32,000 nt of DNA from Clostridia bacterium (GTDB lineage Bacteria; Bacillota; Clostridia; Lachnospirales; Lachnospiraceae), in assembly GCA_910576205.1 (NCBI GenBank), contig CAJTHL010000006.1, forward strand, positions 104,432 through 136,431, written 5' to 3'. Positions 13,223 to 30,477 of the stretch are shown here, piece after piece; position 1 is the first letter of the stretch, and every line of letters starts with the position of its first letter. Below the pieces are notes generated by a model. The model did no database searches. It was not told the DNA's origin and saw only the letters and a list, made by a program, of their open reading frames with translations. A program made the translations under genes and the position numbers.

Positions 13223-13231
13223 TTGTTTTCC

Positions 13232-14740: not shown

Positions 14741-14769
14741 TCCCTCCTGGTTCTGTCTGCATTTCCCCT

Positions 14770-15891: not shown

Positions 15892-15909
15892 GTTTTTATC
15901 CTCCCTTAA

Positions 15910-16905
15910 TTAATTTTCTTTTGGTGAAACAGCAGCCGCTCCTTTTTTCAGCTCCTGCTTCAGTTTTCTATCGCTTATAATCTGCTTAATGCTTTCCAGT
16001 GAGACAGCCAGAAGAAGGATGAGTCCCAGATAGGTCTGCTCAAAGTAAACATTTGCATTTAACATTACCAGGCCGTTCTTTACCATGACGATCAGAATTC
16101 CCGCGAAGAACAGGCCTACGGCGTTGAATACGCCGCCCTTTAACAGGGTTCCTCCGATTACCGCTACCGCAAAGGAGATCACCATCCAGTCCACGCCTGT
16201 GGAGGGCTGGGCGGAGCCTGTTCTGGAAATCCACAGAATTCCCGCAATGGAGGCAAATACCCCGGAAGCCACGTTTGCGATAATCAGAATCCGGTTGGTG
16301 TTGACGCCGGACATTTTCGCCGCCTCAATATTTCCTCCTGTGGCCAGATACCTGCGCCCCAGAACCGTGTATTTAAACACATATCCAGCCAGAGCCAGGG
16401 CAATCACCGCCAGGATCAGCAGATAGGGAATCCCAAGGAATCCTTTCCGGCCAATGACGGTAAAGCTGTCTGGGATTCCCTCGTAGGGGAAGCCCTTGGA
16501 GATTCCGTTTATCAGCCCCGTATACACAAAGGAGGTGGCCAGGGTAACCACAAAAGCGTTAAGCTTCAGCAGTGTAATAACCAGGCCGTTAACCAGCCCT
16601 GTAAGGACGCCCACCAGCAGTCCGATGCTGACTGCTGCAAATACCGGCACCTGCATTTCCTGTAGCGCATATCCAACAGCTACTACCGTAAGCCCTCCGA
16701 TATATCCCAGGGACAGGTTCATACCTCCCACAATAACCACCATGGCCTGCCCCAGCGCTATGAACATGTAAACCGCCGCGTTCCGCCCCATATTGAAAAA
16801 ATTATAGGAGGTCAGAAAGCTGTCGGAACATACCGCAAAAATCAGTCCCAATAGGAGCACTGCCAGGATCACCGTCACTTCGCTTCTTGCAAAAAGCTTC
16901 TTCAT
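15910..16905 (-). CDS. Sugar ABC transporter permease (RbsC/branched-type, about 10 TM)
   Basis: 331 aa from the ATG at 16903-16905 (MKKLFARSEVTVILAVLLLG; AGAGGAG RBS). The track's 28-codon N-terminal extension overlaps rhaM and has no RBS. Confidence 0.85.
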   Translation of the reverse strand: MKKLFARSEVTVILAVLLLGLIFAVCSDSFLTSYNFFNMGRNAAVYMFIALGQAMVVIVGGMNLSLGYIGGLTVVAVGYALQEMQVPVFAAVSIGLLVGVLTGLVNGLVITLLKLNAFVVTLATSFVYTGLINGISKGFPYEGIPDSFTVIGRKGFLGIPYLLILAVIALALAGYVFKYTVLGRRYLATGGNIEAAKMSGVNTNRILIIANVASGVFASIAGILWISRTGSAQPSTGVDWMVISFAVAVIGGTLLKGGVFNAVGLFFAGILIVMVKNGLVMLNANVYFEQTYLGLILLLAVSLESIKQIISDRKLKQELKKGAAAVSPKEN

Positions 16906-16915
16906 TTTTCTTATG

Positions 16916-17257
16916 TCACTCCTCTCCCCGTTCCAGATGATAGACCTCCTCCATGTCCGCCCACCATTCGCCCTCCCGGGCGTCCTCAATGGGATACTGA
17001 CACGGGTCCGTCTCCTTCCACCACCTCTGCGTCGTGGGATCCGCCGCCATTTTTTTCATATCGGCCTCAAAATCTTCCCCCACATACTCAAAATAGCTGA
17101 ACAGATATCCGTTTCTATAGTAAATGGAATAATTCTGTATGTTACATTCCCGGATCATCTGGTTTACCTCCGGCCATGGATTTGCATGAAGTTCTTTGTA
17201 TTTTTCCAGAAATTCCGGCTTCACCCGGATAACCTGGCCATACCTTCTCATATGCAC
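16916..17257 (-). CDS. rhaM: L-rhamnose mutarotase family protein
   Basis: 113-aa ORF; RYGQVIRVKPEFLEKYKELHANPWPEV ... NYSIYY ... LFSYFEY ... WW is the RhaM (DUF718) pattern. Confidence 0.85.
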   Translation of the reverse strand: MHMRRYGQVIRVKPEFLEKYKELHANPWPEVNQMIRECNIQNYSIYYRNGYLFSYFEYVGEDFEADMKKMAADPTTQRWWKETDPCQYPIEDAREGEWWADMEEVYHLERGEE

Positions 17258-17307
17258 GCTCCTCTCTTAAATTCCGCGGCATCCTTATGACGCCCGCCTA
17301 TAAATCC

Positions 17308-17335
17308 ATTATAGCTTTTCCCGGTTTCATTTCAA
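17308..17335 (-). promoter_or_regulatory. Sigma-A promoter of the rhaM-permease-SBP-ATPase operon (TTGAAA-16-TATAAT)
   Basis: Minus strand: -35 TTGAAA (plus 17330-17335), 16-bp spacer, -10 TATAAT (plus 17308-17313), about 50 nt upstream of rhaM. Confidence 0.55.
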
Positions 17336-17352
17336 TACGGTTGCAGAAATAT

Positions 17353-17372
17353 AAATCTAAACGTTTTGATTT
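17353..17372. promoter_or_regulatory. LacI-type palindromic operator, copy 1 (AAATCTAAACGTTTTGATTT)
   Basis: 20-bp palindrome with central CG, 9 of 10 arm pairs complementary. Embedded in a 27-bp block (17346-17372) identical to 18755-18781. Exactly 39 nt upstream of the -10 hexamer. Confidence 0.55.
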
Positions 17373-17387
17373 TCTCTCCGGAATCCA

Positions 17388-18638
17388 CTATTTTCTGGCA
17401 CGCTCCACGGCTTTGTACATAGCCATAATATTTTCCGGCGGAACGTCCGGCAGGATATTGTGCTCTGTGTTAAAGACAAATCCTCCATCCTTGTGGAAAA
17501 TCTCAATCATCCGGCTGGTGTAATCGTAAACCTCCTCAGGCGCGGCATGATTCAGAATAGAGCGGGTGTTGCAGCCGCCTCCCCAGAAGGTAATATATTT
17601 TCCAAACTCTTTTTTGAGGCGGGCCGGGTCCATCTGATAGGCTGTAGTCTGCACCGGGCTGATAATGTCGTACCCTGCGTCAATGAGATCCCCCATCACC
17701 CCGTAAATGGAGCCGCAGGAATGCAGGAAGGTTTTCATATTGCTGTGGGTATGTACATACTCGTTGAGTTTTGTGTGGTAGGGCTTAAAGAGCTCCCGGT
17801 ATTTTTCTGCAGACATAAACATATTTTTGTCCATGCCCAGGTCATCCCCGAACCGTAGAAGGTCCACCACATCCCCCACAGCCTCGCAGGTCTTTTCCAG
17901 AGAGTGCAGGTGGCGCTCCATAAGCTGCTCCACAAGCTCCTGCACGCTCTCCGGCTCCGCGTAGATATCCATAAGGAAATTTTCCATCCTCCTAAGGAAC
18001 GTGCCCCACTCAAACAAATTGCAACCACAGGTAATCATCAGTGCCCGGTCTGTGCTGGCCCTGAGCTTTATACAGCGCTCCCTGAGATCCGCGTAGAAGG
18101 CGTCCTCGGTGGGGAAATCCTTCATGTGATCCCATGGTCCATGCACCAGGGCGCTCCAGAGCACCTGCCCCATGGCATGATCCAGATCGTCAAAGTTCTC
18201 CGGATAGTCCTCTTTATATGGGAAAATGGTCTGGTCAAAGCACATGCCTCCTTTGGGCATCCGGGCAATCAGAACCCCGTCCTGGTATACGTCGTATCCG
18301 CCATCCGCCGTACGTACAGGCTTAAACCAGGCGGGCCACTGGCCGGTTTTCCCGTTGCTCAAGGTCACGTCGTACCAGTCGCTGTCCTTCTCGTTGTATA
18401 CCCTGGCCACATCCAGGGCGTCCGCTCCAATAAGGTCCAGTACGCATTCCTCCGGCTGGGCCGCCTGCTGTACCACATCGTAAATCCGGGTGTGCCCCTC
18501 CTTAATTCCCAGATATTCTTTTAAATTTGCATACGCCTGGCCGGAAATGCCTGTGCTGACATTGCTGCCCAGATCCAGGGGCAGGTAATCCGGCTCCTTG
18601 TGATTTACGGCTGCCATTACACGCTCTCTTGACGTCAT
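17388..18638 (-). CDS. URO-D-family protein (MtaA/CmuA-like fold), function unknown
   Basis: 416 aa from the ATG at 18636-18638 (MTSRERVMAAVNHKEPDYLPLDLG; GAAGGAG RBS). The track start at 18749 lies upstream of the predicted -10. Family features: N-terminal P(D)Y.P.D, C-terminal FWGGG ... HNILPDVPPENIMAMY. Confidence 0.8.
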   Translation of the reverse strand: MTSRERVMAAVNHKEPDYLPLDLGSNVSTGISGQAYANLKEYLGIKEGHTRIYDVVQQAAQPEECVLDLIGADALDVARVYNEKDSDWYDVTLSNGKTGQWPAWFKPVRTADGGYDVYQDGVLIARMPKGGMCFDQTIFPYKEDYPENFDDLDHAMGQVLWSALVHGPWDHMKDFPTEDAFYADLRERCIKLRASTDRALMITCGCNLFEWGTFLRRMENFLMDIYAEPESVQELVEQLMERHLHSLEKTCEAVGDVVDLLRFGDDLGMDKNMFMSAEKYRELFKPYHTKLNEYVHTHSNMKTFLHSCGSIYGVMGDLIDAGYDIISPVQTTAYQMDPARLKKEFGKYITFWGGGCNTRSILNHAAPEEVYDYTSRMIEIFHKDGGFVFNTEHNILPDVPPENIMAMYKAVERARK

Positions 18639-18761
18639 CTTGTCACGCTCCTTCTCTTTTTCTGATTTTCCTGGCGGAATCTTTCCCTTTTGTGCTTTCT
18701 CCCGCTCGATAGTTCCATTATAGCGGCTGAAAATGAAAAAAGGCTCCATTTCCCGAAATAT

Positions 18762-18878: not shown

Positions 18879-21185
18879 ATGGCAACTTTGAAGGATGTAG
18901 CAAAAGACGCCGGCGTGTCTATCGCCACCGTTTCCTGTTATCTAAGCGGCAGCAAGCCTGTCCGGGCTTCCACCCGTCTCAAAATCCAGGAATCCATAGA
19001 AAAGCTGAAATATATCCCCAACGCGTCTGCCCGGAATCTGAAATCCCCCCAGTCCCGGCTTGTAGGAGTTGTCCTTACGGATATCGACGATTTATACCAT
19101 GCGGAGATTTTCAAGGGCATATCCAGCAGCCTGCAAAGTGAGGGGTATTCTGCCAGCGTGGCCTTCTCCAACAATCTCCCGGACAAAGAATGCACCATCA
19201 TCAATGATTTTATCAGCCAGAATGCCGCAGGGCTTCTGATTATTACCTGCCAGCCCCAGAATACGGAATTTTTCCAGAACCGGCTTCTGAATTTCCGGAT
19301 CCCCACGGTATTTCTGGAGCGGATTCCCCAGGATCTGGATGCCTGTCTGGCCGGCTTTCAAAACGAAAAGACTGCCTTTTATCTGACGGACGCCCTGCTG
19401 GAAAAAGGATACCGTCATATTGCCCTTGTGTGCGGCCCCTCCTACTTTACCTCTGAGCACGACTGTATTCTGGGCTATCAGCGGGCCTTTGCCCAGCGGG
19501 GAATTCCCTGGGACGATTCTCTTATCTGCACCACAAATATGACCCAGGAAGACGCCTTTAAGGTTGTGCTGACCACCATCAGCCGCCAGCCTTTGGACGC
19601 CGTGATCTCCTCTTCCGAAGCCATCCACTGGGGAACCCTGGAGGCACTGAAAAACAGAGGCCTTAGGGTTCCCGGCGACATCCAGCTTATGACCTTCAGC
19701 GAGGAATCCTGGAGCCAGGCTTACCGGACCGGGGGAATCCTTTACACCTCCCGGACTGCTTTCCATCTGGGCGCGTCTGCTTCCCGGCTTCTCCTAAAGC
19801 ATATCCAGGATCCGGACTGCAAAGAAAAAAGTCTGATTCTATCAGACTCCATTCTTCAGCAGAAGCTGAATCTGCCGCCGGCCAGCTCCCTATCCCGCTC
19901 TCCTTTTACCTCCCTGGGTATTTCCGTGGTCCCCTCTTACCAGCCCCAGCTTAAGATCCTGCTGGCAGACTTGACCACCGCCCACAGCATGGAACTGCTG
20001 GCAGACAATTTCACCCGGAAAACCGGCATTTCCCTGTCCTTTGACTATCTGCCCCAAAAGGAGCTCCTGTCCCATGTCTATGAACACACGGACAAGATCC
20101 ATTCCTATGATATTTATATGTATGACGTTCCCTGGCTGGATTATCTGGTTCAGAATTCCCTGCTGGCAGATCTCACGGATTTTATCAGCGGAGACAGCTT
20201 TCATACAGAATATATTTTTCCGGAAAATATGGAGAATTGCAGATGCCAGGGCCGGTATTACGGCGTCCCCCTTATCGGCGGCACCCAGGTTCTCTTTTAT
20301 CGCAAAGACCTCTTCGAGAACAGTTCCTGGCAGAAGCTTTACTATGAACAGCAGGAGGCTCATCTGAAGCCGCCCCGCACCTGGACGGAATTTAACCGCA
20401 TTGCCGCCTTTTTTACCCGTTCTGAAAATCTCGACTCCCCCACCATGTTTGGCACCTCCATGGCCGGAATCGTGGACGAGGAGCTGGCCCCGGAGCTCTG
20501 GATCCGCCTCTGGGCCATGAACGGCTGCCTGTGGGACAGCTATAACCGCCCCTGTCTGGACAGGCCGGAAAACCAGCAGGCCTTTGAGAGCGTCCTGGAT
20601 ACCCTGCGCTATACGGAGCGGCCCCCCTTCTCCACCTCCATCTCCCAGACTGTGGAGGATTTTTCCCTGGGCAAAACCGCCATGCTTATCACCTACTCGG
20701 AATACGCCGCCCAGATCAGCCGCCATATACACGAAAACATCATCGGTCAAGTGGGATATCATCTGATCCCTGGCAGGCGTCCGGCCAGCGTGGGGTGGAA
20801 TCTGGGCATGAATCCCTACTCTGCCCGGGCTTCTCTGGCATACCAGTTCTTTGACTGGCTCTGCCAGCCGGACACCAGCTTCCACATCACCATCCTGGAC
20901 GGACAATCCCCCCTCATGGCACCCTACCATAGCCTGGAGCTCCTAAAGCTGTATCCCTGGATGTCCATCACCGAGAAGAGCTTTGCCTACACGCAAAAAA
21001 GAAAGGGGCCCTACCGGAGCCGTGCCCTGGTAGTTCCCCAGAATAAGATCGAAGCTATCCTGTGCCAGACCCTCCGCCAGATCGTTCAGGAAGGCTGTTC
21101 TGTTTTCCAATCTCTCGCGGACAACCAGGAGCGGCTGCGGGGTCTTTTATTGTCGTATGGGTATCCGAGGGCGTTTACGCATTAG
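18879..21185 (+). CDS. LacI-family regulator fused to a C-terminal CUT1-type solute-binding-protein domain (cytoplasmic, 768 aa)
   Basis: aa 1-57 are a LacI HTH (ATLKDVAKDAGVSIATVSCYL ... IPNASARNLK). aa 60-326 are the LacI sugar-binding core. aa 327-356 are a Ser/Pro linker. aa 357-768 are an SBP_bac_1/8-like domain (GRYYGVPLIGGTQVLFYRKDLFEN, PRTWTEF) with no signal peptide or TM segment. Confidence 0.8.
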   Translation: MATLKDVAKDAGVSIATVSCYLSGSKPVRASTRLKIQESIEKLKYIPNASARNLKSPQSRLVGVVLTDIDDLYHAEIFKGISSSLQSEGYSASVAFSNNLPDKECTIINDFISQNAAGLLIITCQPQNTEFFQNRLLNFRIPTVFLERIPQDLDACLAGFQNEKTAFYLTDALLEKGYRHIALVCGPSYFTSEHDCILGYQRAFAQRGIPWDDSLICTTNMTQEDAFKVVLTTISRQPLDAVISSSEAIHWGTLEALKNRGLRVPGDIQLMTFSEESWSQAYRTGGILYTSRTAFHLGASASRLLLKHIQDPDCKEKSLILSDSILQQKLNLPPASSLSRSPFTSLGISVVPSYQPQLKILLADLTTAHSMELLADNFTRKTGISLSFDYLPQKELLSHVYEHTDKIHSYDIYMYDVPWLDYLVQNSLLADLTDFISGDSFHTEYIFPENMENCRCQGRYYGVPLIGGTQVLFYRKDLFENSSWQKLYYEQQEAHLKPPRTWTEFNRIAAFFTRSENLDSPTMFGTSMAGIVDEELAPELWIRLWAMNGCLWDSYNRPCLDRPENQQAFESVLDTLRYTERPPFSTSISQTVEDFSLGKTAMLITYSEYAAQISRHIHENIIGQVGYHLIPGRRPASVGWNLGMNPYSARASLAYQFFDWLCQPDTSFHITILDGQSPLMAPYHSLELLKLYPWMSITEKSFAYTQKRKGPYRSRALVVPQNKIEAILCQTLRQIVQEGCSVFQSLADNQERLRGLLLSYGYPRAFTH

Positions 21186-21204
21186 GATACTCCCTGTGAC
21201 TCCT

Positions 21205-22182
21205 TTAGGTGGTATCTCCCTTCACCAGATGTATTTCGGAAAGCATGGTATTACAGGATATCTTTTCCCCCTCTATCTTCCGGATCAAGATATCAACTAT
21301 CTGCTCCGCGATCAGATCAAAGGGCTGCTCTACATATGTCATGGTAGGATACATCAATCTTGCGATATCCCCGCCGTCATATCCTACCAGCTTTACTTCC
21401 TCCGGTATCTTCCTGCCGTTATCCAGCAGGAACTTCATGGCATTCGCAATTATAAGATCCGAGGAAAACACCCCGTCGATCTCCGGATGTTCCTTGAAGA
21501 TAGCTTCCACAATCTCATAATACCGCTCGCGCTGAAATTCATTGGCGCTCAGTTCATAATCCATACAACGGATCTCATTTTCTTTTAAGATTTCCGCAAA
21601 TACATTATTGCGGATAAATGAAGGCGTCTTAACATTAATATCTCCTTCCAGCTGGAGAACGCACTTGCAGCGGTTTCGCACAAACTCCTCCGCCGCCAGC
21701 CGGCCTCCTTTAGCATGATCCGAGGATACTGTGGGGATGGAATCACTCAGTGATACATCCAAGGCTACCACTGGCATCTCAATCGCACGATACTCTTCTG
21801 TTTTAAGCATGTGGGTTCCGATAATAATTCCATCAACTTTATTCTGAAACAGCATCTGCAGATACTCGCTCTCATAAGCGCCCCGGTCCTTTGTGTTACA
21901 GAGAAACACCTTATATCCTTTTCTGTGCAAAAGCGTTTCTATCCGCTCTGTCATTTCTGAAAAAAACGGAATTGTCACATCGGGGATCAAAAGACCTATA
22001 TAGGATGTTCGCCGGTTGTGGAAACTCCGCGCCAGCTGATTCGGCTGATAATTCAATTCTTTTATGGCGTTCTCCACTTTATCTCTTGTCTCTTGGGAGA
22101 TATATCCCCTGCTATTCATTACACGGGAGACTGTTGTTATGGAAACCCCCGCCTGTTGTGCTACCTCTTTAATCGTTATCAT
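21205..22182 (-). CDS. LacI-family transcriptional regulator
   Basis: 325 aa from the ATG at 22180-22182 (MITIKEVAQQAGVSITTVSRVMN; GAGGTG RBS). The track start at 22194 is a GTG. Classic HTH plus periplasmic-binding-like core. Confidence 0.85.
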   Translation of the reverse strand: MITIKEVAQQAGVSITTVSRVMNSRGYISQETRDKVENAIKELNYQPNQLARSFHNRRTSYIGLLIPDVTIPFFSEMTERIETLLHRKGYKVFLCNTKDRGAYESEYLQMLFQNKVDGIIIGTHMLKTEEYRAIEMPVVALDVSLSDSIPTVSSDHAKGGRLAAEEFVRNRCKCVLQLEGDINVKTPSFIRNNVFAEILKENEIRCMDYELSANEFQRERYYEIVEAIFKEHPEIDGVFSSDLIIANAMKFLLDNGRKIPEEVKLVGYDGGDIARLMYPTMTYVEQPFDLIAEQIVDILIRKIEGEKISCNTMLSEIHLVKGDTT

Positions 22183-22221
22183 GCCGCACCTCACTATCCC
22201 AAAGCCTTTTTCCGTACCAGA

Positions 22222-22250
22222 ATTTTATCACAAATCCACCCACAGCGCAA
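22222..22250 (-). promoter_or_regulatory. Candidate promoter of the LacI gene (TTGCGC-17-TGaTAAAAT)
   Basis: Minus strand: -35 TTGCGC (plus 22245-22250), 17-bp spacer ending in TGA, -10 TAAAAT (plus 22222-22227). Confidence 0.4.
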
Positions 22251-22274
22251 TTTTTCTTTCTCCATGACCACATT

Positions 22275-23168
22275 TTACAAAATATGTGTATTTTCATTGA
22301 TCTCCCGAATCTGAGTTAGGAGGCTTTCCATCCGTTCCTTAGAGGGCGCCTCAAATTTTTCCTCCTTCATACACAGGCTTTTTGCCTTATAAGTTCCATA
22401 AGCATGATAGGGCAGCAGATCGATGCGCTCGATTTTTCTTAATTCTTGGTAATAATCCAGAAATCTCCCTATATCTTCATCCCTGTCATTCAGCCCATGG
22501 ATAATAGGCATGCGGATCCAGACTCTGCCCTTCTCCAAGGCGCTGAGTTTCTTCAGATTTCTCAAAATAATCTGATTATCCACTCCTGTATAATCTCTGT
22601 GCGCCTTTCTATCCACAGTCTTTACATCGTACAAAAAAAGATCTGTGTAGGAAAGTATTTCCCGAAAGCATTCCCAGTCTACGTTACCGGCCGTATCCAC
22701 AGCCGTGTGCATTCCTTTCTCTTTTGCCTTTTTTAAAGCGGCCTTTAACTCTCCCGCCTGCAACAGCGGTTCGCCACCGGAAAAAGTAATTCCGCCTTTT
22801 CCAAATAACTGAACATCTTCCAACGCCTTCTCCAGGATCGTATCTGTATCCACATACTCTCCAACTGTCTGTAGAGCGCCCGCATAGCAATGTGACACAC
22901 ATTTCTGACACTGTGTACATTTTTCCCTTTCCAGTCTCCAATTGTCTTTTATAGTAATCGCTTCTGTGGGACATAGCCCCACACAGGTCCCGCAAAATCT
23001 ACAGCGGGATTCCAGATACTGAATCTCCTGGCTGGCATGCTGGGTTTCTGGATTATGACACCATCTGCAGGCCAGATTGCATCCTTTCAAAAAAACAGTC
23101 ATGCGGATGCCTGGCCCATCATGAATGCTAAAACGCTGTATTTTTGTGATAAAAAGCCTGTTACCCAT
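22275..23168 (-). CDS. Glycyl-radical enzyme activating enzyme (radical SAM with two auxiliary ferredoxin-like clusters)
   Basis: 297-aa ORF; CNLACRWC (CX3CX2C) at aa 30-37 after the DGPGIR motif, plus CRFCGTCVGLCP and CTQCQKCVSHC. Its start overlaps the GRE stop by 8 nt. Confidence 0.9.
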   Translation of the reverse strand: MGNRLFITKIQRFSIHDGPGIRMTVFLKGCNLACRWCHNPETQHASQEIQYLESRCRFCGTCVGLCPTEAITIKDNWRLEREKCTQCQKCVSHCYAGALQTVGEYVDTDTILEKALEDVQLFGKGGITFSGGEPLLQAGELKAALKKAKEKGMHTAVDTAGNVDWECFREILSYTDLFLYDVKTVDRKAHRDYTGVDNQIILRNLKKLSALEKGRVWIRMPIIHGLNDRDEDIGRFLDYYQELRKIERIDLLPYHAYGTYKAKSLCMKEEKFEAPSKERMESLLTQIREINENTHIL

Positions 23169-25404
23169 TTACAAATGTTCTCCCGATGATCTCATCCTGT
23201 ATCTGTGGGTCAAGCGCTGTAAAATATGCGCTGAAGCCGCATACGCGGACCACGATATTCCTATATTCCTTAGGTTTCTCTTTTGCTTTTCGCAGGGTTT
23301 CAGCATCCAGCAGATTCAAGTCCAAAGCGCTGCCTCCTGCATGCAAAAATCCTTTCAGCGTCCATTTTATATAGTCATGTCCCAGCTTTTCCTTTGTCAC
23401 AGGCATTTCCAGATAGATAACTCCTGTTCCCGGATACGCGGACAGATCAAGCTTCGACAAAGCGCTCAGTATATTGGCCGCATTGGAAATTCCGCTGATC
23501 TCCGTGGGATTCATTCCCCTGGATAGCGCCTCTCCTGCCTTTCTCCCATCTGGCGTTGCCCCCACATGTTCTTTCATCCAGTCAAAAAGATAAAACACAA
23601 AGAGGGACGCCTCATATTTTCCTCCCCGGGCATTTTGATAGCCGGACGTTACTCTGGCCGCATCCGCGAAAAAACGCCTTGCGAACTCGTTAGTATCCTT
23701 ACAGTCGTCCCCATATTTCGGACAACGATTTAAAATGTAATCCCATATCCTCTGATCCGAAGAAAAATTACTTTTCAACAGTTTACAGAACCCTTGAAAC
23801 GACAACATCTGCTTATCAAACACGATCTCTTTTATTGCCAATAAAGAATTTATCGCCGTGGCAATACCCACCAGAGGCATACTTGTGGAATTATATAGAG
23901 CGCCTCCCTCCTCCATATCCTTTCCCCGCAAAATACACTCCTCTAAAGTGGCTGAGATCAAGACGCAGGGATTATATTCTCCGGCCTGCTTTTCATAACT
24001 ATTTACTTTCTCCACCAGGCGTCGGTAAACTGCTTCCAGCCGCAGAAAATACTGCTGATAAACCTCCTCAAAGCTCTTGTAATCCTGTTTGCAGATAATC
24101 CCTGTTTTCTCTCTCTGGAAAAATCCATCCAGCTCCTTGTCCCAAAGGGTATTGACCAACTGGGGCAGACTGATATAGATAAATGCCCTGGAATTTAGCT
24201 CTGTATTGTCCAACACCGGCTCCTGGCATCCACCCGCCGAATACAGCCTGGCATGTTCCAGGCGTTTTCCCATCCGCACATGGGATTTAATGATCACATC
24301 ATCATTTAAAAAAGAAAAAATATTTTCTCCTTTTGCCACCATCTCGCTGCACTTGTTAAAATATTCTTCTGGATGTCTATTGGTAATACGCGCCTGTACC
24401 TTTGGATTCACAAATCCAAATTCATCATAGCACTCCAGGATCATGCGGCTTATATCGTTCCAGACCACCGCACCATTGGTGTCACATCCACCTATGGTAA
24501 TACTGCAGTTGGTAGACGCAAAATCACATCCCTCCAGATCCCACCGGGCGTCTGTATGGGCCAGCCAATGGGCCATATAATTTTTTGCCTTCTCATAGGT
24601 GATCCTTCCCGTGCGGATATCCCTCTCATAAAAATCAATTAATATCCGGTCCAGGTGTCCCAGAACCGCTACCGCCACGCCCTCCAGGTCAACTGCCATT
24701 TCCTTTAAGAACAATATTGCGCACAATGCTTCATAAAAGCTCTCCGCCGGATAATAAGGTACCCGCCTGGCCGCTCTCGCCAATTCACGCAGATTCTCTA
24801 CAAAATCAGGATTTCTTTCTTCAAGGGCCATACGCTCCGCTTCCCCGGCAAAGTGTTCCGCTATCTGTTTCATGGAAGCACACATAGTCAGCACGCTCCT
24901 ATAAAAGGCCCGCTTCCTCTCATCGGATTCCACTTCTAAATGGCCGGCCGCCTGTCTCTCTATCTCCACAAACCCTGTGGCAAGGATCCGCTCATAACCC
25001 ATAGTGTGATGGGCCATATCCGTAAACACACATCCCCAGATCAGGTCCTGATCCTGGTAGGGAGCGATCCATTTCTGAAACCCATCCAGAACCGGCTGCG
25101 TCTTTCTGGTAAACCAGCCCTCAAATCCCGGGCCTGGCGGATATCCGTTCTGACTGGTATTTCGCTCCCTCCCGGAGATAAGCTCAAAGAAAAACGGGGA
25201 GCTGCGAAACACCTTCACCTTGCAAAGCCGGGCCGCCCCTTTATATACCAGGGCTTTTTTCTCATAAGAATAAGGTGTTTCCAGATGGTCCAGCCATTGA
25301 TCCATCTCCCTCTGCTCTTCTGAGAGATCATAAGGCATTTTTTCATAGTATTCTCTAAACTCCCGAAACAATATCTCCTTATACTTTTTAAAATCACTGG
25401 CCAT
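23161..25404 (-). CDS. Glycyl-radical enzyme, uncharacterised clade (Cys-x-Glu eliminase-type active-site loop)
   Basis: 747-aa ORF; C-terminal glycyl-radical motif VRVCGFSAYF (Gly723, codon 23236-23238); thiyl loop FLNDD..YSAGGCQEP (Cys393, 24226-24228; Glu395, 24220-24222); GATPDGR motif at aa 615-621. Confidence 0.9.
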   Translation of the reverse strand: MASDFKKYKEILFREFREYYEKMPYDLSEEQREMDQWLDHLETPYSYEKKALVYKGAARLCKVKVFRSSPFFFELISGRERNTSQNGYPPGPGFEGWFTRKTQPVLDGFQKWIAPYQDQDLIWGCVFTDMAHHTMGYERILATGFVEIERQAAGHLEVESDERKRAFYRSVLTMCASMKQIAEHFAGEAERMALEERNPDFVENLRELARAARRVPYYPAESFYEALCAILFLKEMAVDLEGVAVAVLGHLDRILIDFYERDIRTGRITYEKAKNYMAHWLAHTDARWDLEGCDFASTNCSITIGGCDTNGAVVWNDISRMILECYDEFGFVNPKVQARITNRHPEEYFNKCSEMVAKGENIFSFLNDDVIIKSHVRMGKRLEHARLYSAGGCQEPVLDNTELNSRAFIYISLPQLVNTLWDKELDGFFQREKTGIICKQDYKSFEEVYQQYFLRLEAVYRRLVEKVNSYEKQAGEYNPCVLISATLEECILRGKDMEEGGALYNSTSMPLVGIATAINSLLAIKEIVFDKQMLSFQGFCKLLKSNFSSDQRIWDYILNRCPKYGDDCKDTNEFARRFFADAARVTSGYQNARGGKYEASLFVFYLFDWMKEHVGATPDGRKAGEALSRGMNPTEISGISNAANILSALSKLDLSAYPGTGVIYLEMPVTKEKLGHDYIKWTLKGFLHAGGSALDLNLLDAETLRKAKEKPKEYRNIVVRVCGFSAYFTALDPQIQDEIIGRTFVNG

Positions 25405-25425
25405 TTTGTATTACCTCCTGTTGTG

Positions 25426-26460
25426 TCACGCGTTGTTTTCCATAAAAAGTACAACCTTTAGAGCCCTTTTTTCCCGAATTGCCTGGAATCCCTTTTCAAA
25501 ATCTTTCAGCTCCATCCGATGTGATATCAGAAATTCTGTATTGATTTTTTTCTCCCGGATCCCCTGCTCCACAAGAGCGTGCGTTTTCATCTCTTCTTTA
25601 GGAATTGGCCATTGTACAAATTTAAGAGTTACATTTCGCACCCCCTCCAGAGGAATGCCCAATTCCTGCCCTGTCCTTAGGCCGTAAACAGCTACCATAC
25701 CATCCTCCCGTACCAGAGGCAGCCCTTGACGGATCGTCTGCGGAGTTCCAACAGTGTCTATGTAAAAATCAAAGTATTTCTTCCGTTCTTCTCTCAAATG
25801 ATACATGCCCTCAAAATCTTTATTCCAGTAAATTCCAGAAGCTCCTATCTGTTTCGCAATCTTCAAGTTTCCCCTGTGATTTCCCACCATATCAGCTTCA
25901 ATAGCAAGCAGCCTGCAAATACTCAGCATGCACAGCCCCACCGGACCATCCCCTACCACTAATACCCTGTTTCCTCTTTCCACACCCATACGCATAAGCG
26001 CGCTGCATGTCTCCTTTAACGTGATCATTAGGGCTGCCTGTTCCGGCGTAATGTCGGGAGCAGTTACCTGCTGTGTCAGACTCCCCGACGCTTCCTCAAA
26101 GGAATATCCGTCCCGCAGCATTGCCGCAGAATCTTTTACCACACCATATTCACAAAAGCTTCCCCACCCGCTGTAATAATGTTCCGAATCCGGCAGGGAT
26201 GCCCGCAGAACCCGGTCTCCTATCTGATAGCTGCAAACTTTCTCCCCTTTCCTCACCACAATTCCAACCCCTTCGTGGCCTAATACCAGGGGAAATCTTT
26301 GCGCTTCCGTAATCCCTCCCTTTATAATTTCCATATCTGTGCCATTACAGATCATGCAGCATTCTATCTTTACCAAAGCCTCATAAGGCCCGATTTCCGG
26401 CATCGGAATATCATCCGCCAGGTGGATAATACCATTTTTCTCTACAACTAATCCTCTCAT
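25426..26460 (-). CDS. Zn-dependent alcohol/polyol dehydrogenase of the medium-chain dehydrogenase/reductase (MDR) superfamily
   Basis: 344-aa ORF; catalytic-Zn context CCMICNGTD and LGHEGVGIV; Rossmann motif VLVVGDGPVGL; no four-Cys structural-Zn loop visible. Confidence 0.85.
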   Translation of the reverse strand: MRGLVVEKNGIIHLADDIPMPEIGPYEALVKIECCMICNGTDMEIIKGGITEAQRFPLVLGHEGVGIVVRKGEKVCSYQIGDRVLRASLPDSEHYYSGWGSFCEYGVVKDSAAMLRDGYSFEEASGSLTQQVTAPDITPEQAALMITLKETCSALMRMGVERGNRVLVVGDGPVGLCMLSICRLLAIEADMVGNHRGNLKIAKQIGASGIYWNKDFEGMYHLREERKKYFDFYIDTVGTPQTIRQGLPLVREDGMVAVYGLRTGQELGIPLEGVRNVTLKFVQWPIPKEEMKTHALVEQGIREKKINTEFLISHRMELKDFEKGFQAIREKRALKVVLFMENNA

Positions 26461-26467
26461 ATGCTTA

Positions 26468-27328
26468 TCATCCTTTCACACCCGACAGTGCCACAGATTG
26501 AATAAAATACTTTTGTAAAAACAAATATAGAAGCAAAATAGGCAAAATGCTGATCAAAGTAGCAGCCATAACCTCATTCCATGGGGGAATAAATTCTACC
26601 GACGGCCCGGTTAAGCTTGCCATAGCCAGGGTGATGGGAAACATCTCAGATTTATTCAGCGCCACCAGCGGCCACATGAGATTATTCCAGCTCTGTAAAA
26701 AAACATAAGTGCCCAGTGTCAGCATCCCTGGCACAGCATTAGGTACGATCACCTGAATGAATATCCGGAAGTGCCCGGCGCCATCCACATATGCCGCTTC
26801 GTTTAATTCCTTTGGTATACCAAGAAAAAACTGGCGGATCAAAAATGTCCCAAAGGGAATCGCCCAGGCCACAAGCGGAAAGATCAAGCCGGTATAACGG
26901 TTCATAAGTCCCATATTTTTTACCAGAACAAAAGACGGGATCAGCCGGACTACCTGAGGAACCATCATGGTTGACAAGTATAAAAAAAATACCGCTGTGG
27001 CATACTTAAAATTCATTCTTGTAAGCGCATACGCCGCCATACTGCATAAAACCACTGTCAAAACCGCCGTTGGCACGGAAACCATAAAAGAATTTAAAAA
27101 GCTCTGGGGGAAATCAATCAGCTTCCATGCATCCGCGAAATTACCCCAGATAATCTGTGCCGGGATCAGTTTTGGCGGAAACACAAACAATTCTGAATCT
27201 GACTTTAACGCTGTTGAAAGCACCCAGAAAAATGGATAAAGAATGATCCCGGCGATCAGACAGGCTGCCAGAAGAGTCAGAATTTCACGGCTTCGCTTTG
27301 CTTTCTTTAAACTTCTTTCCTTTGTCAT
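26468..27328 (-). CDS. Carbohydrate ABC transporter permease (MalG/CUT1 type)
   Basis: 286-aa ORF, 6 predicted TM helices, EAA-like loop (ELNEAAYVDGAGHFRIF). Confidence 0.9.
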   Translation of the reverse strand: MTKERSLKKAKRSREILTLLAACLIAGIILYPFFWVLSTALKSDSELFVFPPKLIPAQIIWGNFADAWKLIDFPQSFLNSFMVSVPTAVLTVVLCSMAAYALTRMNFKYATAVFFLYLSTMMVPQVVRLIPSFVLVKNMGLMNRYTGLIFPLVAWAIPFGTFLIRQFFLGIPKELNEAAYVDGAGHFRIFIQVIVPNAVPGMLTLGTYVFLQSWNNLMWPLVALNKSEMFPITLAMASLTGPSVEFIPPWNEVMAATLISILPILLLYLFLQKYFIQSVALSGVKG

Positions 27329-27340
27329 ACATCCACGCTC

Positions 27341-28225
27341 CTACTCGCTCTTTGTAAATTTATTTTGAAGCAGTGTAAAGATCAGGATCACCACAAACAG
27401 AACTACCGACATAGCGCTGGCATAGCCCATTCTCATGGAGGAAAACGCTGTCTGGTACATATAGTATCCCGTAACATAGGTGGAAGTTCCCGGGCCTCCA
27501 GACGTGATCATATAAAACAGATCAAATTCCTGGAAAGAGCCTATAATACTCATCAGAGCAATAAACACAAGGATCGGCTTCAATTCTGGCAGAGTGATAT
27601 ACCAGAACTTCTGCCACGGCCTTGCACCCTCCAGGCTGGCCGCCTCATAGTATTGTTCGGAGATGCCCAGCATTCCAGCCACCAGCATAACCATATAATA
27701 GCCAGCCCACCGCCAGGCTGTCACGATCACAATAGATACCATGGCGATCTTACCGCTGGTAAGCCATTTTACAGAGCTAAGGCCGCAGGCATTTAGCAAT
27801 CCATTTACCGCTCCATTATTTGTCCCCAGCAGATAATTCCAGGCAATGCCAGTAGCTACTAAAGACAGCATTGTCGGCATAAAATAAATTCCGCGAAAGA
27901 GCTTTGATAATTTTGTATGTGTGACAAGCGCTGCCATTCCCAGGGCCATAGCCATGATCAAAGGAACATTCAGCGCAATGTAATAGAGTGTATTCCATAC
28001 GCTGATCCACCACAGTTTGTCATGTAGCAGTTCTTTATAGTTTGCCAGCCCTACAAATACATTGTCCTTCAGCGGTTTCCATTCATAAAACGACAAAACC
28101 ATGGAATAAAGCATAGGCCAAAGTACAAATATTAACAACAGAAGCATACTGGGCATCAAAAAGAGGAAGATCATAATTCCTCTTTTCCGGATTCTTTTCA
28201 TTCTACTCAAGCCTTTTTCACCCAT
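27341..28225 (-). CDS. Carbohydrate ABC transporter permease (MalF/CUT1 type)
   Basis: 294-aa ORF, 6 predicted TM helices, EAA-like loop (YYEAASLEGARPWQKFWYITLP); AGGAGAAAG RBS. Confidence 0.9.
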   Translation of the reverse strand: MGEKGLSRMKRIRKRGIMIFLFLMPSMLLLLIFVLWPMLYSMVLSFYEWKPLKDNVFVGLANYKELLHDKLWWISVWNTLYYIALNVPLIMAMALGMAALVTHTKLSKLFRGIYFMPTMLSLVATGIAWNYLLGTNNGAVNGLLNACGLSSVKWLTSGKIAMVSIVIVTAWRWAGYYMVMLVAGMLGISEQYYEAASLEGARPWQKFWYITLPELKPILVFIALMSIIGSFQEFDLFYMITSGGPGTSTYVTGYYMYQTAFSSMRMGYASAMSVVLFVVILIFTLLQNKFTKSE

Positions 28226-28241
28226 TTCTTTCTCCTGAATA

Positions 28242-28273
28242 TTTTGGCTGGCAATGACGCCTGCCAGCCAAAA
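28242..28273 (-). other. Intercistronic stem-loop between the SBP and first permease genes
   Basis: Perfect 12-bp stem TTTTGGCTGGCA (28242-28253) / TGCCAGCCAAAA (28262-28273) with an 8-nt loop; no U-run after it on the transcribed strand, so a stabiliser or partial attenuator rather than a full terminator. Confidence 0.5.
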
Positions 28274-28304
28274 GCCAGGGTTTAAGGTAATCTGTCTAAA
28301 ACCG

Positions 28305-29630
28305 CTATTTTTTTAACAGTTCATTTACCTCCGCTGCCAGATCCCTCAATACCGTTTCCACGTCTTCCCCACTGTACCATATACGATCCAATTGCCTGGA
28401 GGCAGCGTCCATCTGCTCATTTACTGTCAGGACATTGGGCATCCATTTGCAGTATTCCAGGGCATCCACAAAAATCCCCGCGTTCTTCTCAGTTGCGAAC
28501 TGGGAAACAGATACGTCTTTCAAGGATTTTCGCACCGCGATCTGGGGATCCGTTGTATTTTCAAGGAGTATCCGCAGCCCTTCCTCGCTGGTGGCAAATT
28601 TCATAAAATCCATGGCCGCCTCTTTATTTTCTGATGTAGAAGAAATGCTTATTGTATTTACATACAGCACTTCCCCTTTTGTTCCATCATTTCCCCTGGG
28701 AGCATGCATGATTCCCCAATCCAGTGTTTCGCTGTCTTCCAGCTTTAAGGCTTCCCATAATGCCACACGCCCCATGGCGATGGATCCGGAATTAAGCATT
28801 CCCACGATAGGGAAGGATCCTTCATCTAGTTTTTCAATCGGCGGAATGACGCCTGTGTCCACAAGCTTCTGAATATATTTTACTGCCTCTACCGTTTTGG
28901 GGTCATCCAGATTACTCACGGTATCGTCTGCATTTGTGTACTCTACTCCGTTCTGCCACATATATGGCAAAAGTGTTTTAATCCCATAATCATTGATCAA
29001 TGTAGCGTAATTCACGCCAACCTCATCCTTGTGCTCCACGATCAATTCACAGGTATCCAGAAATTCGTCCCAGGTATACCCTTCCTCTGGTACTTCCAGA
29101 TTCAGCTCTTCAAAAATTTTCTTATTATATACCCATGCATAGTTTCCTCCATCTACCGGAATCCCATACATTTTCCCCTTATAGGTAGCATAATCCAGTG
29201 TCGTTTCCCAGAAATCGTTAAAATTATAGGCAGAATCTGACTTTAAATCCTCCGGATCGATCTCCTCCAGGATTCCCGCTTCAGCAAACATCTGCGTGTT
29301 CCCCACTTTACAGGAAAGCAGATCTGGAAGCGCGTCTCCCGCCGCCTCTGTATTAATCTTCGTCTCGTAATCAGAGATCTGTTCATAATTTATAACCACG
29401 TCTGGATTCACCTCTTTGTATGCGTCCAGGATCGGCTGGTATTTTGAAACAGGATCCCAGCTCTGCCATGTCAGTACAAGCTTATCCCCTGTATCTTCCG
29501 TTCCCGCCTGTCCGGATTCCTGAGGCATTCCCGCCGGATCTTCGGAAGATTCTTTCGTTCCTCCGCATGCGGTAAGCATACCAACTGCCAATAACGCAGC
29601 CATGAAAATAGAAAATACCCTCTTCTTCAT
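28305..29630 (-). CDS. CUT1-family extracellular solute-binding lipoprotein
   Basis: 441-aa ORF; lipobox GMLTAC-GG; SBP_bac_1-like core (GKMYGIPVDGGNYAWVYNKKIFEE); AAGGAGG RBS. Confidence 0.9.
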   Translation of the reverse strand: MKKRVFSIFMAALLAVGMLTACGGTKESSEDPAGMPQESGQAGTEDTGDKLVLTWQSWDPVSKYQPILDAYKEVNPDVVINYEQISDYETKINTEAAGDALPDLLSCKVGNTQMFAEAGILEEIDPEDLKSDSAYNFNDFWETTLDYATYKGKMYGIPVDGGNYAWVYNKKIFEELNLEVPEEGYTWDEFLDTCELIVEHKDEVGVNYATLINDYGIKTLLPYMWQNGVEYTNADDTVSNLDDPKTVEAVKYIQKLVDTGVIPPIEKLDEGSFPIVGMLNSGSIAMGRVALWEALKLEDSETLDWGIMHAPRGNDGTKGEVLYVNTISISSTSENKEAAMDFMKFATSEEGLRILLENTTDPQIAVRKSLKDVSVSQFATEKNAGIFVDALEYCKWMPNVLTVNEQMDAASRQLDRIWYSGEDVETVLRDLAAEVNELLKK

Positions 29631-29668
29631 TTTTTGTCCTCCTTTGTTTGTTTTTAGTTTATGCTGGT

Positions 29669-29697
29669 ATCATATCACTTCTTTTTTTATATGTCAA
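29669..29697 (-). promoter_or_regulatory. Strong sigma-A promoter of the SBP-permease-ADH-GRE-activase operon (TTGACA-17-TGaTATGAT)
   Basis: Minus strand: consensus -35 TTGACA (plus 29692-29697), 17-bp spacer ending in TGA, -10 TATGAT (plus 29669-29674), about 35 nt upstream of the SBP ATG. Confidence 0.6.
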
Positions 29698-29709
29698 TCG
29701 TTTTCATAT
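29689..29709 (-). promoter_or_regulatory. Operator-like site A (ATATGAAAACGATTGACATAT on the minus strand), overlapping the -35
   Basis: Contains a LacI-type half-site ATGAAAACG and inverted ends ATATG/CATAT. 18 of 21 positions are identical to site B, which lies in the opposite orientation. Confidence 0.4.
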
Positions 29710-29770
29710 AGTTTTATACTATTTTTTTCTGCTTTTATCTGGATATTTTGCTATTTTTGTCCATTTTTTT
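29701..29770. promoter_or_regulatory. Helically phased T/A-tracts (predicted intrinsic bend) immediately upstream of the GRE-operon promoter
   Basis: Runs of 4 or more T begin at 29701, 29712, 29722, 29733, 29746, 29754 and 29764, a mean period of 10.5 bp over seven tracts. Confidence 0.55.
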
Positions 29771-29829
29771 GTTCTTCTTCTTGCTATTTTCATTTTTTCG
29801 TTATATTTTCTTTCATTATTCCAATTTTT

Positions 29830-29850
29830 ATATGAAAACGAGCGTCATAT
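29830..29850 (+). promoter_or_regulatory. Operator-like site B (ATATGAAAACGAGCGTCATAT)
   Basis: Perfect 6-bp inverted ends ATATGA/TCATAT around a 9-bp core. Its centre is 141 bp from the centre of site A. Confidence 0.4.
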
Positions 29851-29902
29851 CATCTATGCATATATGAGACCAGGAAGCCTGTGTCTGGAATACATCTTCA
29901 GA

Positions 29903-29939
29903 CTAAAAAAGGCCATTGCCCCAAAAGCAACAGCCTTTC
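29903..29939 (-). terminator. Probable rho-independent terminator after infA
   Basis: On the minus-strand RNA, AAAGGCUGUUGC / GCAAUGGCCUUU form a 12-bp stem (two G-U pairs) with a 7-nt loop, running into a U-rich tract (plus-strand A-run 29906-29911). Confidence 0.45.
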
Positions 29940-29960
29940 TCACCATCATGGTAAAAACAT

Positions 29961-30179
29961 TTATTTATCTCTCCAGATGATCCTTCCCTTAGACAGGTCA
30001 TAGGGTGACATCTCGATGGTCACCTTATCTCCCGGAAGGATACGGATAAAGTTCATGCGGAGCTTTCCGCTGATATGCGCCAGCACTTTGTGGCCATTTT
30101 CCAGCTCCACCTGGAACATGGCGTTGGGCAGCTTTTCAATTACGGTTCCTTCAATTTCAATAACATCTGCTTTTGACAT
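29961..30179 (-). CDS. infA: Translation initiation factor IF-1
   Basis: 72-aa ORF; [53 protein letters not shown] is near-universal IF-1 sequence. Confidence 0.97.
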
Positions 30180-30192
30180 GTGATTCCTCCCA

Positions 30193-30477
30193 CTACTTTC
30201 TCAATTCCCTCGAACTATGCAGTTTAATCGCAAATTTGATATCCTCATTCCGTATGCTTTCCTTCCGGGACAGCTTTTCCCGCAGATTTTCCGGAATAGT
30301 ATATTGGATCTGTATATGCTTCCTCTTCTTTTTCTTTGGCTTTTCCAGAGGCCGCAGACGCCCGTCTACCAGCCACACGTAAGTCTCATCCATATCCCAG
30401 ACAATATAGCACGTGTCCTTGTCATGGCCTGCCCTGGATATGGCAAGCATGCCTGCCTCAATCTTCTCTACTCCCAT
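30193..30477 (-). CDS. KOW-domain RNA-binding protein, commonly found between map and infA in Clostridia
   Basis: 94-aa ORF; [21 protein letters not shown]-like motif and a Lys-rich segment; conserved position. Confidence 0.7.

Follow-up and report, generated by a model that had tools for sequence, protein, structure and literature searches.

What role does a glycyl radical enzyme (GRE) play in an operon that otherwise looks devoted to sugar uptake? This question is raised by seven consecutive minus-strand genes at positions 21205-29630 of the window, a 32,000-nucleotide stretch of contig CAJTHL010000006.1 (assembly GCA_910576205.1, positions 104,432 to 136,431) from a Clostridia bacterium of the Lachnospiraceae. 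The RpoA protein of this uncultured gut bacterium shares 93% identity with those of Candidatus Galacturonibacter soehngenii and Konateibacter massiliensis, in keeping with the family. The operon would represent a new form of GRE-based sugar catabolism; it is conserved, and its GRE family was previously undescribed in the searchable literature. We think it rather probable that it is a LacI-repressed operon for a neutral fructose-related carbohydrate, namely a ketohexose, a hexitol, an anhydro-hexitol or a fructoside of one of these, which would undergo radical C-O elimination. A preliminary description, made from the letters of the window and its open reading frames (ORFs), had regarded the system as the best candidate for an undescribed pathway in the window. 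In agreement with this, neither the June 2026 review of all GRE classes (PMC13450708) nor the searchable literature describes the family or its context, although articles in subscription journals may have been missed. The same review notes that whole GRE clades still lack experimental validation (PMC13450708).

Read along the minus strand, the operon opens with the gene of a solute-binding protein (SBP), the lipoprotein of a CUT1-type ABC importer (441 amino acids (aa), 28305-29630; SBP_bac_1, 1.4e-33; SBP_bac_8, 6.5e-34). It is followed by permease 1 of the UgpA/MalF type (294 aa, 27341-28225; BPD_transp_1, 2.6e-20), permease 2 of the UgpE/MalG type (286 aa, 26468-27328; BPD_transp_1, 5.2e-16) and an MDR-type zinc-dependent dehydrogenase (ADH; 344 aa, 25426-26460; ADH_N and ADH_zinc_N). 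The GRE (747 aa, 23161-25404; PFL-like, 8e-100; Gly_radical, 8.8e-13), its radical SAM activase (297 aa, 22275-23168; TIGR02494, Radical_SAM and Fer4) and a LacI-family repressor (21205-22194; 329 aa from the GTG at 22194 or 325 aa from the ATG at 22182; LacI helix-turn-helix (HTH), 1.1e-22, and Peripla_BP_1) complete the set. The intergenic gaps from the SBP gene to the GRE gene are 79, 12, 7 and 21 nt, and the GRE stop and the activase start overlap by 8 nt (23161-23168). Gene order, strand, coordinates, the 7-79 nt gaps and the 8-nt overlap in the ORF list are as the preliminary description had them, and its domain identities for the SBP, permeases, ADH, GRE, activase and LacI protein are borne out by Pfam and NCBIfam, profile matches to which back all seven gene assignments. 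It was also right about what the block lacks: the ORF list and the domain search revealed no microcompartment shell protein, aldehyde dehydrogenase, phosphotransacylase, kinase or glycoside hydrolase gene in it.

The GRE is a real member of its superfamily, and it lies far from the known GREs. Both domain models score over their cut-offs (PF02901, 335.8 bits; PF01228, 49.1 bits), and the glycyl motif VRVCG723FSAYF and a cysteine loop, GGC393-Q-E395-P, are present. Membership in any characterised GRE family was rejected because all curated cut-offs were missed by far. The GRE scored 276.2 bits against a cut-off of 1100 with the HypD model NF043068, 252 and 242 against 1000 with the DHPS dehydratase models HpsG and HpfG, 234.6 against 1109 with the PflD-type model NF007437, 217 against 1050 with CutC, 180 against 1100 with indoleacetate decarboxylase, 141 against 1150 with HPAD and 55 against 994 with PFL; with the PFL2/glycerol-dehydratase subfamily TIGR01774 it scored 318.8 against 678.2. 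It is 20-26% identical to HypD, the glycerol and propanediol dehydratases, CutC and YbiW/PflD; among the E. coli proteins, identity is 26% to PflD, 25% to YbiW and 20% to PflB, compared with 37.5% between YbiW and PflD. A census of a 1.84-billion-protein library (50% clusters, E < 1e-30) yielded 1,373 GRE-like cluster representatives, more than 150 of which outscore the best characterised enzyme. The window GRE shares one cluster with P0018, and about 17 more clusters stand at 36-42% identity. The NCBIfam scores, the identities, a tree described below and the cluster census thus agree with the earlier view of the GRE operon as an orphan: the GRE lies beyond all biochemically characterised clades, and its family is unassigned to function.

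The cysteine loop indicates what kind of reaction may be expected. As GGC393-Q394-E395-P it is invariant in 45 family members, and it contains the Cys-x-Glu (CXE) motif common to C-O, C-N and C-S 1,2-eliminases and to newer isomerases, including the sugar enzymes YbiW and PflD (PMC13450708). In the mechanism of this class, the cysteine takes the hydrogen of the carbinol carbon, the glutamate deprotonates the hydroxyl and the neighbouring substituent departs (PMC13450708). By its CXE loop the GRE falls in the 1,2-eliminase/isomerase class, and turnover of this type is predicted. Our statements on the active site derive from sequence alignments to HypD, glycerol dehydratase (GD), propanediol dehydratase, YbiW and PflD. 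A first-strand histidine (H132/H133) is retained and aligned with GD H164 and HypD H160; invariant in the family are D129, E241, H250-x-D252-R253, D285, T298-N299 and Q394, and further E402, N404, R406, Y410 and E598. The carbohydrate-like substrate and radical C-O chemistry suggested in the preliminary description would be consistent with the Cys-x-Glu loop and with the LacI/CUT1 context.

Among solved structures, HypD (6vxc) is the best match to the GRE in both sequence and structure (232 bits, about 22% identity; Foldseek E 8e-40), and the glycerol and propanediol dehydratases come next with 225 and 221 bits. An AlphaFold2 model of the GRE (pLDDT 89.5) has a TM-score of 0.84 to HypD, propanediol dehydratase and glycerol dehydratase at 20-22% identity. 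The HypD-activase model also scores best for the window activase. The locus differs from that of HypD, however, in having no proline-metabolism genes, and identity with HypD was rejected on the score of 276.2 against 1100 bits and on the pocket residue D278, which aligns with A244.

The closeness of the two dehydratases brings up the possibility that the GRE is a dehydratase for glycerol or 1,2-propanediol whose aldehyde product the ADH reduces, with the importer a mere neighbour or a source of the precursor. Such a pairing of dehydratase and reductase is already known, and the dehydratases (1r8w, 5i2a, 9rco) share with the window system the fold, the CXE loop, the first-strand histidine and an activase with extra Fe-S motifs. 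We nevertheless regard a small-diol system as very improbable. The window GRE is only about 22% identical to these enzymes, has an N-terminus shorter by about 40-50 residues, reaches 319 of the 678 bits of TIGR01774 and carries V245, A246 and A407 in place of H281, S282 and D447 (GD numbering), replacements on which identity with glycerol or propanediol dehydratase was rejected. Its genes stand in a sugar operon; the importer and the regulator co-diverge with the GRE, and kinase, aldolase and hydrolase genes occur in the operons of relatives. A microcompartment-type diol system was rejected, since there are no shell genes.

The other proteins of the operon point to a carbohydrate. The SBP starts with MKKRVFSIFMAALLAVGMLTAC, a lipoprotein signal with the lipobox LTAC and Cys22, and in a search of solved structures its closest relatives bind oligosaccharides, with a sorbitol SBP also among the matches. 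The top NCBIfam models are UgpA, GlcT and MalF for permease 1, which reaches the cut-off of none, and GlcU, UgpE and MalG for permease 2. A Cluster-B-type SBP together with two BPD_transp_1 permeases identifies the importer as CUT1. The operon contains no ABC ATPase gene; in the whole window, ABC ATPases are encoded only by a CUT2-type system (10857-14740). The ADH scores over the cut-offs of PF08240 (57.5 bits) and PF00107 (40 bits) and reaches no NCBIfam equivalog cut-off. It has the catalytic-zinc motifs ICNGTD and GHEG and no structural-zinc cysteine cluster. Among solved structures, 5yln and the sorbitol dehydrogenases of sheep and human came out on top and a ketose reductase was also one of the closest relatives, all at low scores. 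These matches suggest that it is a polyol-dehydrogenase/ketose-reductase-like enzyme. The activase scores 318.9 bits with TIGR02494 (cut-off 174), and contains the CNLACRWC cluster (CX3CX2C) and two ferredoxin-like cysteine motifs. The regulator scores 80 bits with PF00356 and 77.5 bits with PF00532.

Are the importer, the ADH and the GRE together by more than chance? We surveyed 80 loci from species-representative genomes and 11 contig sets (19 loci) that carry proteins of the window or homologues, in which ORFs were called and clustered and recurrent clusters were annotated; surveyed loci are cited below by L numbers, and counts out of 30 refer to the non-redundant Firmicutes loci with a GRE at least 37% identical. 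An ADH gene lies no more than 9 kb from the GRE gene in 27 of the 30 loci, and the other three are truncated contigs. Almost all of these Firmicutes loci also encode CUT1 permeases and a regulator, in most cases LacI. The gene order of the operon recurs in other genera, the identical GRE protein was found on 18 metagenomic contigs, and a relative with a 90%-identical GRE (L099) has the same arrangement. A neighbour-joining tree places all ADH-linked loci in one clade of gut-associated Firmicutes, with YbiW and PflD branching outside it. This clade contains three subclades: the window type, an AraC-regulated type and a type bearing a gene for a 920-aa orphan protein.

Within the window subclade the components diverge together (GRE 55-67% identity, SBP 54-70%, permeases 57-79%, ADH 36-61%, LacI 47-80%). 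Against the relative with the 90%-identical GRE, dN/dS is 0.03-0.11 for six genes (SBP, second permease, ADH, GRE, activase and LacI), with 0.10 for ADH and 0.03 for LacI, which means strong purifying selection on all six. From the co-divergence of the partners and the low dN/dS we conclude, therefore, that the unit is inherited and selected as a whole. A decaying locus was rejected on the dN/dS values, and a chance neighbourhood of importer and GRE on the recurrence across genera and the co-divergence. The importer-ADH-GRE association noted in the preliminary description is thus genuine and conserved, as seen from the neighbourhood survey with its 27 of 30 loci, single clade and co-divergence.

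The sister group of the GRE clade comes from Planctomycetota, Verrucomicrobiota and Lentisphaerota. Its loci have no ADH or importer and often border on sulfatase genes, the activase gene is usually not adjacent, and R629 of the window GRE is replaced by proline, lysine or glutamine. Loci L030, L032, L034, L039 and L047 of the sister clade (Planctomycetota, Latescibacterota, Sumerlaeota and related metagenome-assembled genomes; 35-41% identity) adjoin sulfatase genes. The sister clade probably has a different substrate, perhaps one derived from sulfated polysaccharides. A further branch is represented by L012 (7886-15131), from another phylum (GRE 37% identical), in which the GRE gene is found among three URO-D-like genes and an MttB-family methyltransferase gene; this suggests a different, methyl-transfer-linked role. 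The window has a URO-D-like gene of its own (17388-18749, minus strand), two genes away from the operon.

What the imported compound becomes is indicated by the relatives of the operon. In L093, the closest fully sequenced relative outside the species (GRE 67% identical), the order is SBP, permease, permease, ADH, GRE, activase, LacI, class II aldolase and PfkB kinase. A PfkB kinase gene is present in 9 of the 30 loci (one match, in L013, is a truncated ORF of 265 aa) and a class II ketose-phosphate aldolase gene in 6. The best solved relative of the L093 aldolase is E. coli YdjI (7.6e-59). The kinase had no sequence match among solved structures; its top family models are kinases of keto-deoxy sugars or sugar acids (IolC, KDG kinase), at scores far under their cut-offs.

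Hydrolases of the fructofuranosidase type form a second group of accessory genes. A short protein like those of glycoside hydrolase family 32 (GH32) occurs in 7 of the 30 loci; it keeps the RD and EC motifs, and its N-terminal block reads GDSW, not NDPN. Full-length ScrB-type GH32 enzymes are encoded in three loci (a fourth gene, in L010, was missed by the ORF caller) and DUF2961 (GH172) proteins in three. GH172 was founded on an alpha-D-fructofuranosidase/difructose dianhydride (DFA) I hydrolase of Bifidobacterium dentium, which is partnered with a GH32 enzyme (PMC8605356, PMC10941961). The 920-aa orphan, present in 13 of the 30 loci, matched no Pfam model significantly, and a sequence search of solved structures gave no relative. 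In its model (pLDDT 86.7), the C-terminal (alpha/alpha)6 part resembles GH94, GH78 and GH116-type enzymes, and the beta-rich N-terminal part resembles GH32 beta-fructofuranosidases in fold; the modelled folds make it a candidate for a new glycoside hydrolase family. It is the commonest accessory gene, found at L023 (13178-15943) and in 15 other loci (the family of P0113-P0173), and metagenomic sequences of it abound, with up to 1,509 in one cluster. GH91 was absent from the surveyed loci, as were uronate and aldonate genes, and no gene in them specifically supported O-methyl-inositol, inositol, a D-arabinofuranoside, a sugar acid or 3,6-anhydrogalactose as the substrate. The kinase, aldolase and hydrolases of the relatives thus narrow the substrate to a fructose-related compound and supply the downstream half of the pathway.

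On this basis we propose the following pathway. The lipoprotein SBP and the two CUT1 permeases would import the compound with an ATPase, perhaps of the MsmK type, encoded elsewhere, and in hydrolase-bearing loci the imported sugar or polyol would be released from a fructoside. The ADH would interconvert C=O and CH-OH, either making the carbinol for the GRE or reducing the carbonyl product of the GRE. The activase would place the radical on Gly723, and Cys393 would relay it by taking the hydrogen from the carbinol carbon. Glu395 would deprotonate the hydroxyl, the oxygen substituent on the neighbouring carbon, a hydroxyl or a ring ether, would depart, and return of the hydrogen would give a deoxy-ketose. 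The PfkB kinase and class II aldolase of the relatives could then convert the deoxy-ketose to triose phosphate and a C3 carbonyl compound; in the genome studied here, their genes would have to sit outside the window. Three versions can be drawn. A hexitol or hexitol phosphate may give 1-deoxyfructose or its phosphate, an intermediate of the E. coli pathway; fructopyranose may give 6-deoxy-2,5-hexodiulose and then a 6-deoxy-ketohexose; or fructofuranose may give a 5-deoxy derivative. The data show the gene content, motifs, conservation, co-inheritance, operator and distance from known GREs; from these we infer the class of substrate, whether ADH or GRE acts first, the phosphorylation state of the GRE substrate and the products. 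A non-phosphorylated GRE substrate is favoured because the linkage of ADH and GRE is tight and that of the kinase is looser.

The carbohydrate pathway proposed here is supported by the LacI/CUT1 context, the CXE loop and an operator conserved across genera, and several observations weigh against it. The window itself has no kinase, aldolase or hydrolase gene of this pathway, and the match of the ADH to sorbitol dehydrogenases is weak (about 72 bits). Plain fructose needs no radical chemistry, and the link to fructosidases may therefore concern an aglycone or an analogue. SBPs of clade A and clade B are only 23-43% identical, and the hydrolases differ between loci. Because the pocket-strand positions 243-245 of the GRE and the SBPs differ between subclades, related but distinct substrates are likely, and the clade probably covers several of them. 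Finally, three basic residues are conserved in the GRE, namely R287 (Arg/Lys), R406 (invariant) and R629 (specific to the ADH-linked clade). They could bind an anionic group, a phosphate or carboxylate, which would change the order of steps.

Two Diplocloster genomes each contain two paralogous ADH-GRE-importer cassettes (L016 and L026 in D. agilis; L014 and L029 in D. hominis). The first is LacI-regulated, has the short GH32-like gene and shows 60% identity to the window GRE; the second has an AraC regulator, a sensor kinase and a Gfo/Idh/MocA oxidoreductase and shows 40% identity. The pairing argues for two related substrates.

The basic residues lead to another explanation, in which the GRE substrate is formed after import and is a sugar derivative with a phosphate or an acidic group, such as a hexitol phosphate or a keto-deoxy sugar acid, and the ADH works on the product side. 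Its support comes from R287, R406 and R629, which are conserved as described, and from the keto-deoxy sugar acid kinases among the best family matches of PfkB, far under cut-offs as these are. YdjI, the closest solved aldolase, is known to prefer ketose-1-phosphates with an acidic end, which would also fit. This explanation seems to us unlikely, however. The kinase gene is found in only about one third of the loci and the ADH gene is always adjacent; CUT1, LacI and fructosidases suggest neutral sugars, and the surveyed loci contain no uronate or aldonate genes.

Within the neutral-carbohydrate pathway, one specific form would be radical dehydration or ether opening of a free, non-phosphorylated hexose-level carbohydrate, for example mannitol, sorbitol or fructose, to a 1-, 5- or 6-deoxy-ketohexose, with the ADH as a ketose reductase. 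We put this forward tentatively, as a possibility with less than an even chance. If true, gut Lachnospiraceae would possess a redox-balanced "radical fructolysis / hexitol fermentation" that ends in triose phosphate and a C3 compound (hydroxyacetone, lactaldehyde or 3-hydroxypropanal), and hence in propanediol. Fructans and fructose anhydrides of the caramel type would enter it by way of GH32, GH172 and the new hydrolase family.

How does the system compare with the sugar-acting GREs already described? YbiW/YbiY and PflD/PflC of E. coli are C-O lyases for 1,5-anhydroglucitol-6-phosphate and 1,5-anhydromannitol-6-phosphate in a pathway named "anhydroglycolysis" (Ma et al. 2024, according to the account in PMC13450708). 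Sugar-acting GREs were first demonstrated in 2024, and solely for phosphorylated anhydro-hexitols imported by the phosphotransferase system (PTS). The two systems resemble each other in having a CXE-type GRE with an adjacent activase in a sugar-uptake locus, a downstream aldolase and a nearby dehydrogenase (gldA-fsaB beside pflD), and both routes, ours as proposed, give a deoxy-ketose that is cleaved by an aldolase. In contrast, the window uses an ABC importer instead of a PTS, and the compound is thus unphosphorylated on entry. It also differs in the MDR dehydrogenase in its core, in the fructofuranosidase-type hydrolases and class II aldolase of relatives and in other pocket residues. In the alignment, the pocket strand that reads ESNGHS/ESNASS in glycerol dehydratase, YbiW and PflD reads LEGVAVAV in the window GRE. 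Membership in the YbiW/PflD group was rejected on the score below the cut-off, the 25-26% identity, the position on another branch of the tree and the lack of a PTS and of an Fsa-type aldolase.

These likenesses leave the question whether the operon follows the E. coli pathway with ABC import in place of the PTS. It would then import 1,5-anhydroglucitol, 1,5-anhydromannitol or 1,5-anhydrofructose, ring opening by the GRE would yield 1-deoxyfructose, phosphorylated or not, and a kinase and an aldolase would produce glyceraldehyde-3-phosphate and hydroxyacetone. The ADH would reduce anhydrofructose or, at a later stage, hydroxyacetone, a task that GldA may have in E. coli. In favour of this version, the reactions of YbiW and PflD are established (PMC13450708; PMC12441222), the CXE loop is present, relatives have a kinase and an aldolase, and the functional parts match those of E. 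coli pflD-pflC (PTS genes, fsaB, gldA) and ybiW-ybiY (fsaA). We judge this version doubtful, with a modest chance of being right. The GRE shares only 25-26% identity with YbiW and PflD, which share 37.5% with each other and stand apart from it in the tree, and the changed pocket strand is accompanied by differences in other pocket-lining residues. The aldolase is class II (YdjI-like), not Fsa-type, and the GH32, GH172 and GH32-like genes would be left unexplained by anhydro-hexitols, which have no fructosidic bond.

Other known systems share single features with the operon clade. The ydj cluster of E. coli, which comprises the class II aldolase YdjI, the PfkB kinase YdjH and the MDR dehydrogenases YdjJ and YdjL, has the same trio of MDR dehydrogenase, PfkB kinase and class II aldolase, the latter two being found in relatives here. 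It differs in having no GRE and an MFS-type transporter. The isethionate pathway, in which sulfoacetaldehyde reductase acts before IslA/IseG, shows that a dehydrogenase can prepare the carbinol on which a CXE-type GRE works; there, however, the compound is a sulfonate, and the window GRE is only weakly similar (162-164 bits). The GH172/GH32 loci of B. dentium and the DFA-III loci of Blautia resemble the operon clade in their ABC importer, GH32 and/or GH172 enzymes, sugar kinase and occurrence in gut bacteria (PMC8605356, PMC10941961, PMC11538131). In contrast to the clade, the pathways of these difructose dianhydride loci stop at fructose, for which neither a radical enzyme nor a dehydrogenase is required. 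None of the known systems compared unites all parts of the GRE operon clade.

The question of how the operon is controlled can be addressed from the region upstream of the SBP gene. As first described, a near-consensus sigma-70-type promoter lies there on the minus strand (29669-29697), with a -35 box TTGACA (29697-29692), a 17-nt spacer and a TG-extended -10 box TATGAT (29674-29669). Its match of 11/12 is the top site within the 9.3 kb from 21000 to 30300. Promoter-like sites across the region are no commoner than in shuffled sequence; what lends credence to the SBP promoter is where it lies, the AGGAGG ribosome-binding site and the -35/operator block conserved in orthologous loci. The ribosome-binding site, read from the sequence as AAGGAGGA (29637-29644, minus strand), is placed 7 nt upstream of the ATG of the SBP gene. 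The earlier claim of a separate promoter for the LacI gene was not confirmed: the gap of 80-92 nt offers only an 8/12 match (TTGCGC-17-TAAAAT). No terminator-like site was found between the activase and LacI genes.

Searches with generic cre/LacI patterns and for short inverted repeats revealed no operator; comparison of the upstream regions of orthologous SBP genes did. The putative operator O1, ATATGAAAACGATTGACATAT (29689-29709, minus strand), is an imperfect palindrome of 21 bp whose right arm is the -35 box, and it is single-copy in the window. L093 and L094 have an identical block in front of the SBP gene, and a variant, ATATGCTAACCGGTTGACATAT, occurs twice in the loci L014-L016, from three Diplocloster species. 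A second LacI-type operator-like site, O2, ATATGAAAACGAGCGTCATAT (29830-29850), lies 141 bp upstream of O1 and differs from it at three positions; in 100 shuffles, no such match arose by chance. O1 and O2 would look like the main and auxiliary operators of a LacI-type repressor, and the LacI protein is the probable regulator of the operon through these putative sites.

Where the operon is found is also unusual. A carbohydrate-gene stretch of about 21.8 kb (8182-29961), which includes the GRE operon, lies between infA (29962-30180) and rpmJ (8044-8181), genes that usually lie side by side in the ribosomal gene cluster. The same insertion arrangement is seen in L099. The G+C content of the GRE operon is 0.44-0.48, compared with 0.49-0.54 in the flanks, and orthologous operons of other genera lie in unrelated surroundings; therefore, the cassette has moved. 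The stretch 8182-29961 looks like an acquired island at an unusual, highly conserved site. Short ORFs at 9973-10840 resemble fragments of a URO-D-like gene and of the C-terminus of an FGGY kinase, their translations being judged by eye, and look like decayed genes inside the island.

Several neighbours of the operon deserve description. Convergent (tail-to-tail) with the LacI gene of the operon is a plus-strand gene (18879-21185), found in this species group only, for a fusion protein of 768 aa. It consists of a complete LacI-type repressor (HTH and Peripla_BP) and a C-terminal SBP_bac_1/8 domain, with no signal peptide; by its domains, it would be a regulator with two ligand-binding modules. 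In three window-type loci, a CUT2 (ribose-type) importer and a sugar mutarotase are encoded beside the GRE operon (window, 10857-18749; L094, 1-3749; L010, 1-3000), the mutarotase being rhaM in the window and RbsD/FucU in L094. The window also holds genes for an FGGY kinase (123-1532) and an AraC regulator (1666-2631). These CUT2, mutarotase and FGGY neighbours may reflect deoxyhexose-type metabolism nearby, or coincidence.

With GREs, gut anaerobes achieve reactions beyond the reach of ordinary enzymes, and the products of GREs include the host-relevant compounds trimethylamine, H2S, p-cresol and skatole. If our reading of the operon holds, radical chemistry extends to ABC-imported, probably non-phosphorylated carbohydrates, with a link to common dietary compounds, namely fructans or fructose anhydrides formed by heat. 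The operon offers a set of testable parts, comprising the SBP, a repressor with a defined putative operator, the ADH, the GRE and its activase, together with the kinase, aldolase and hydrolases of relatives, and cultured carriers (Diplocloster agilis, Murimonas intestini and Blautia spp.) make de-orphaning realistic. It could uncover a new way to propanediol-type fermentation products and, in the 920-aa orphan, a new glycoside hydrolase family.

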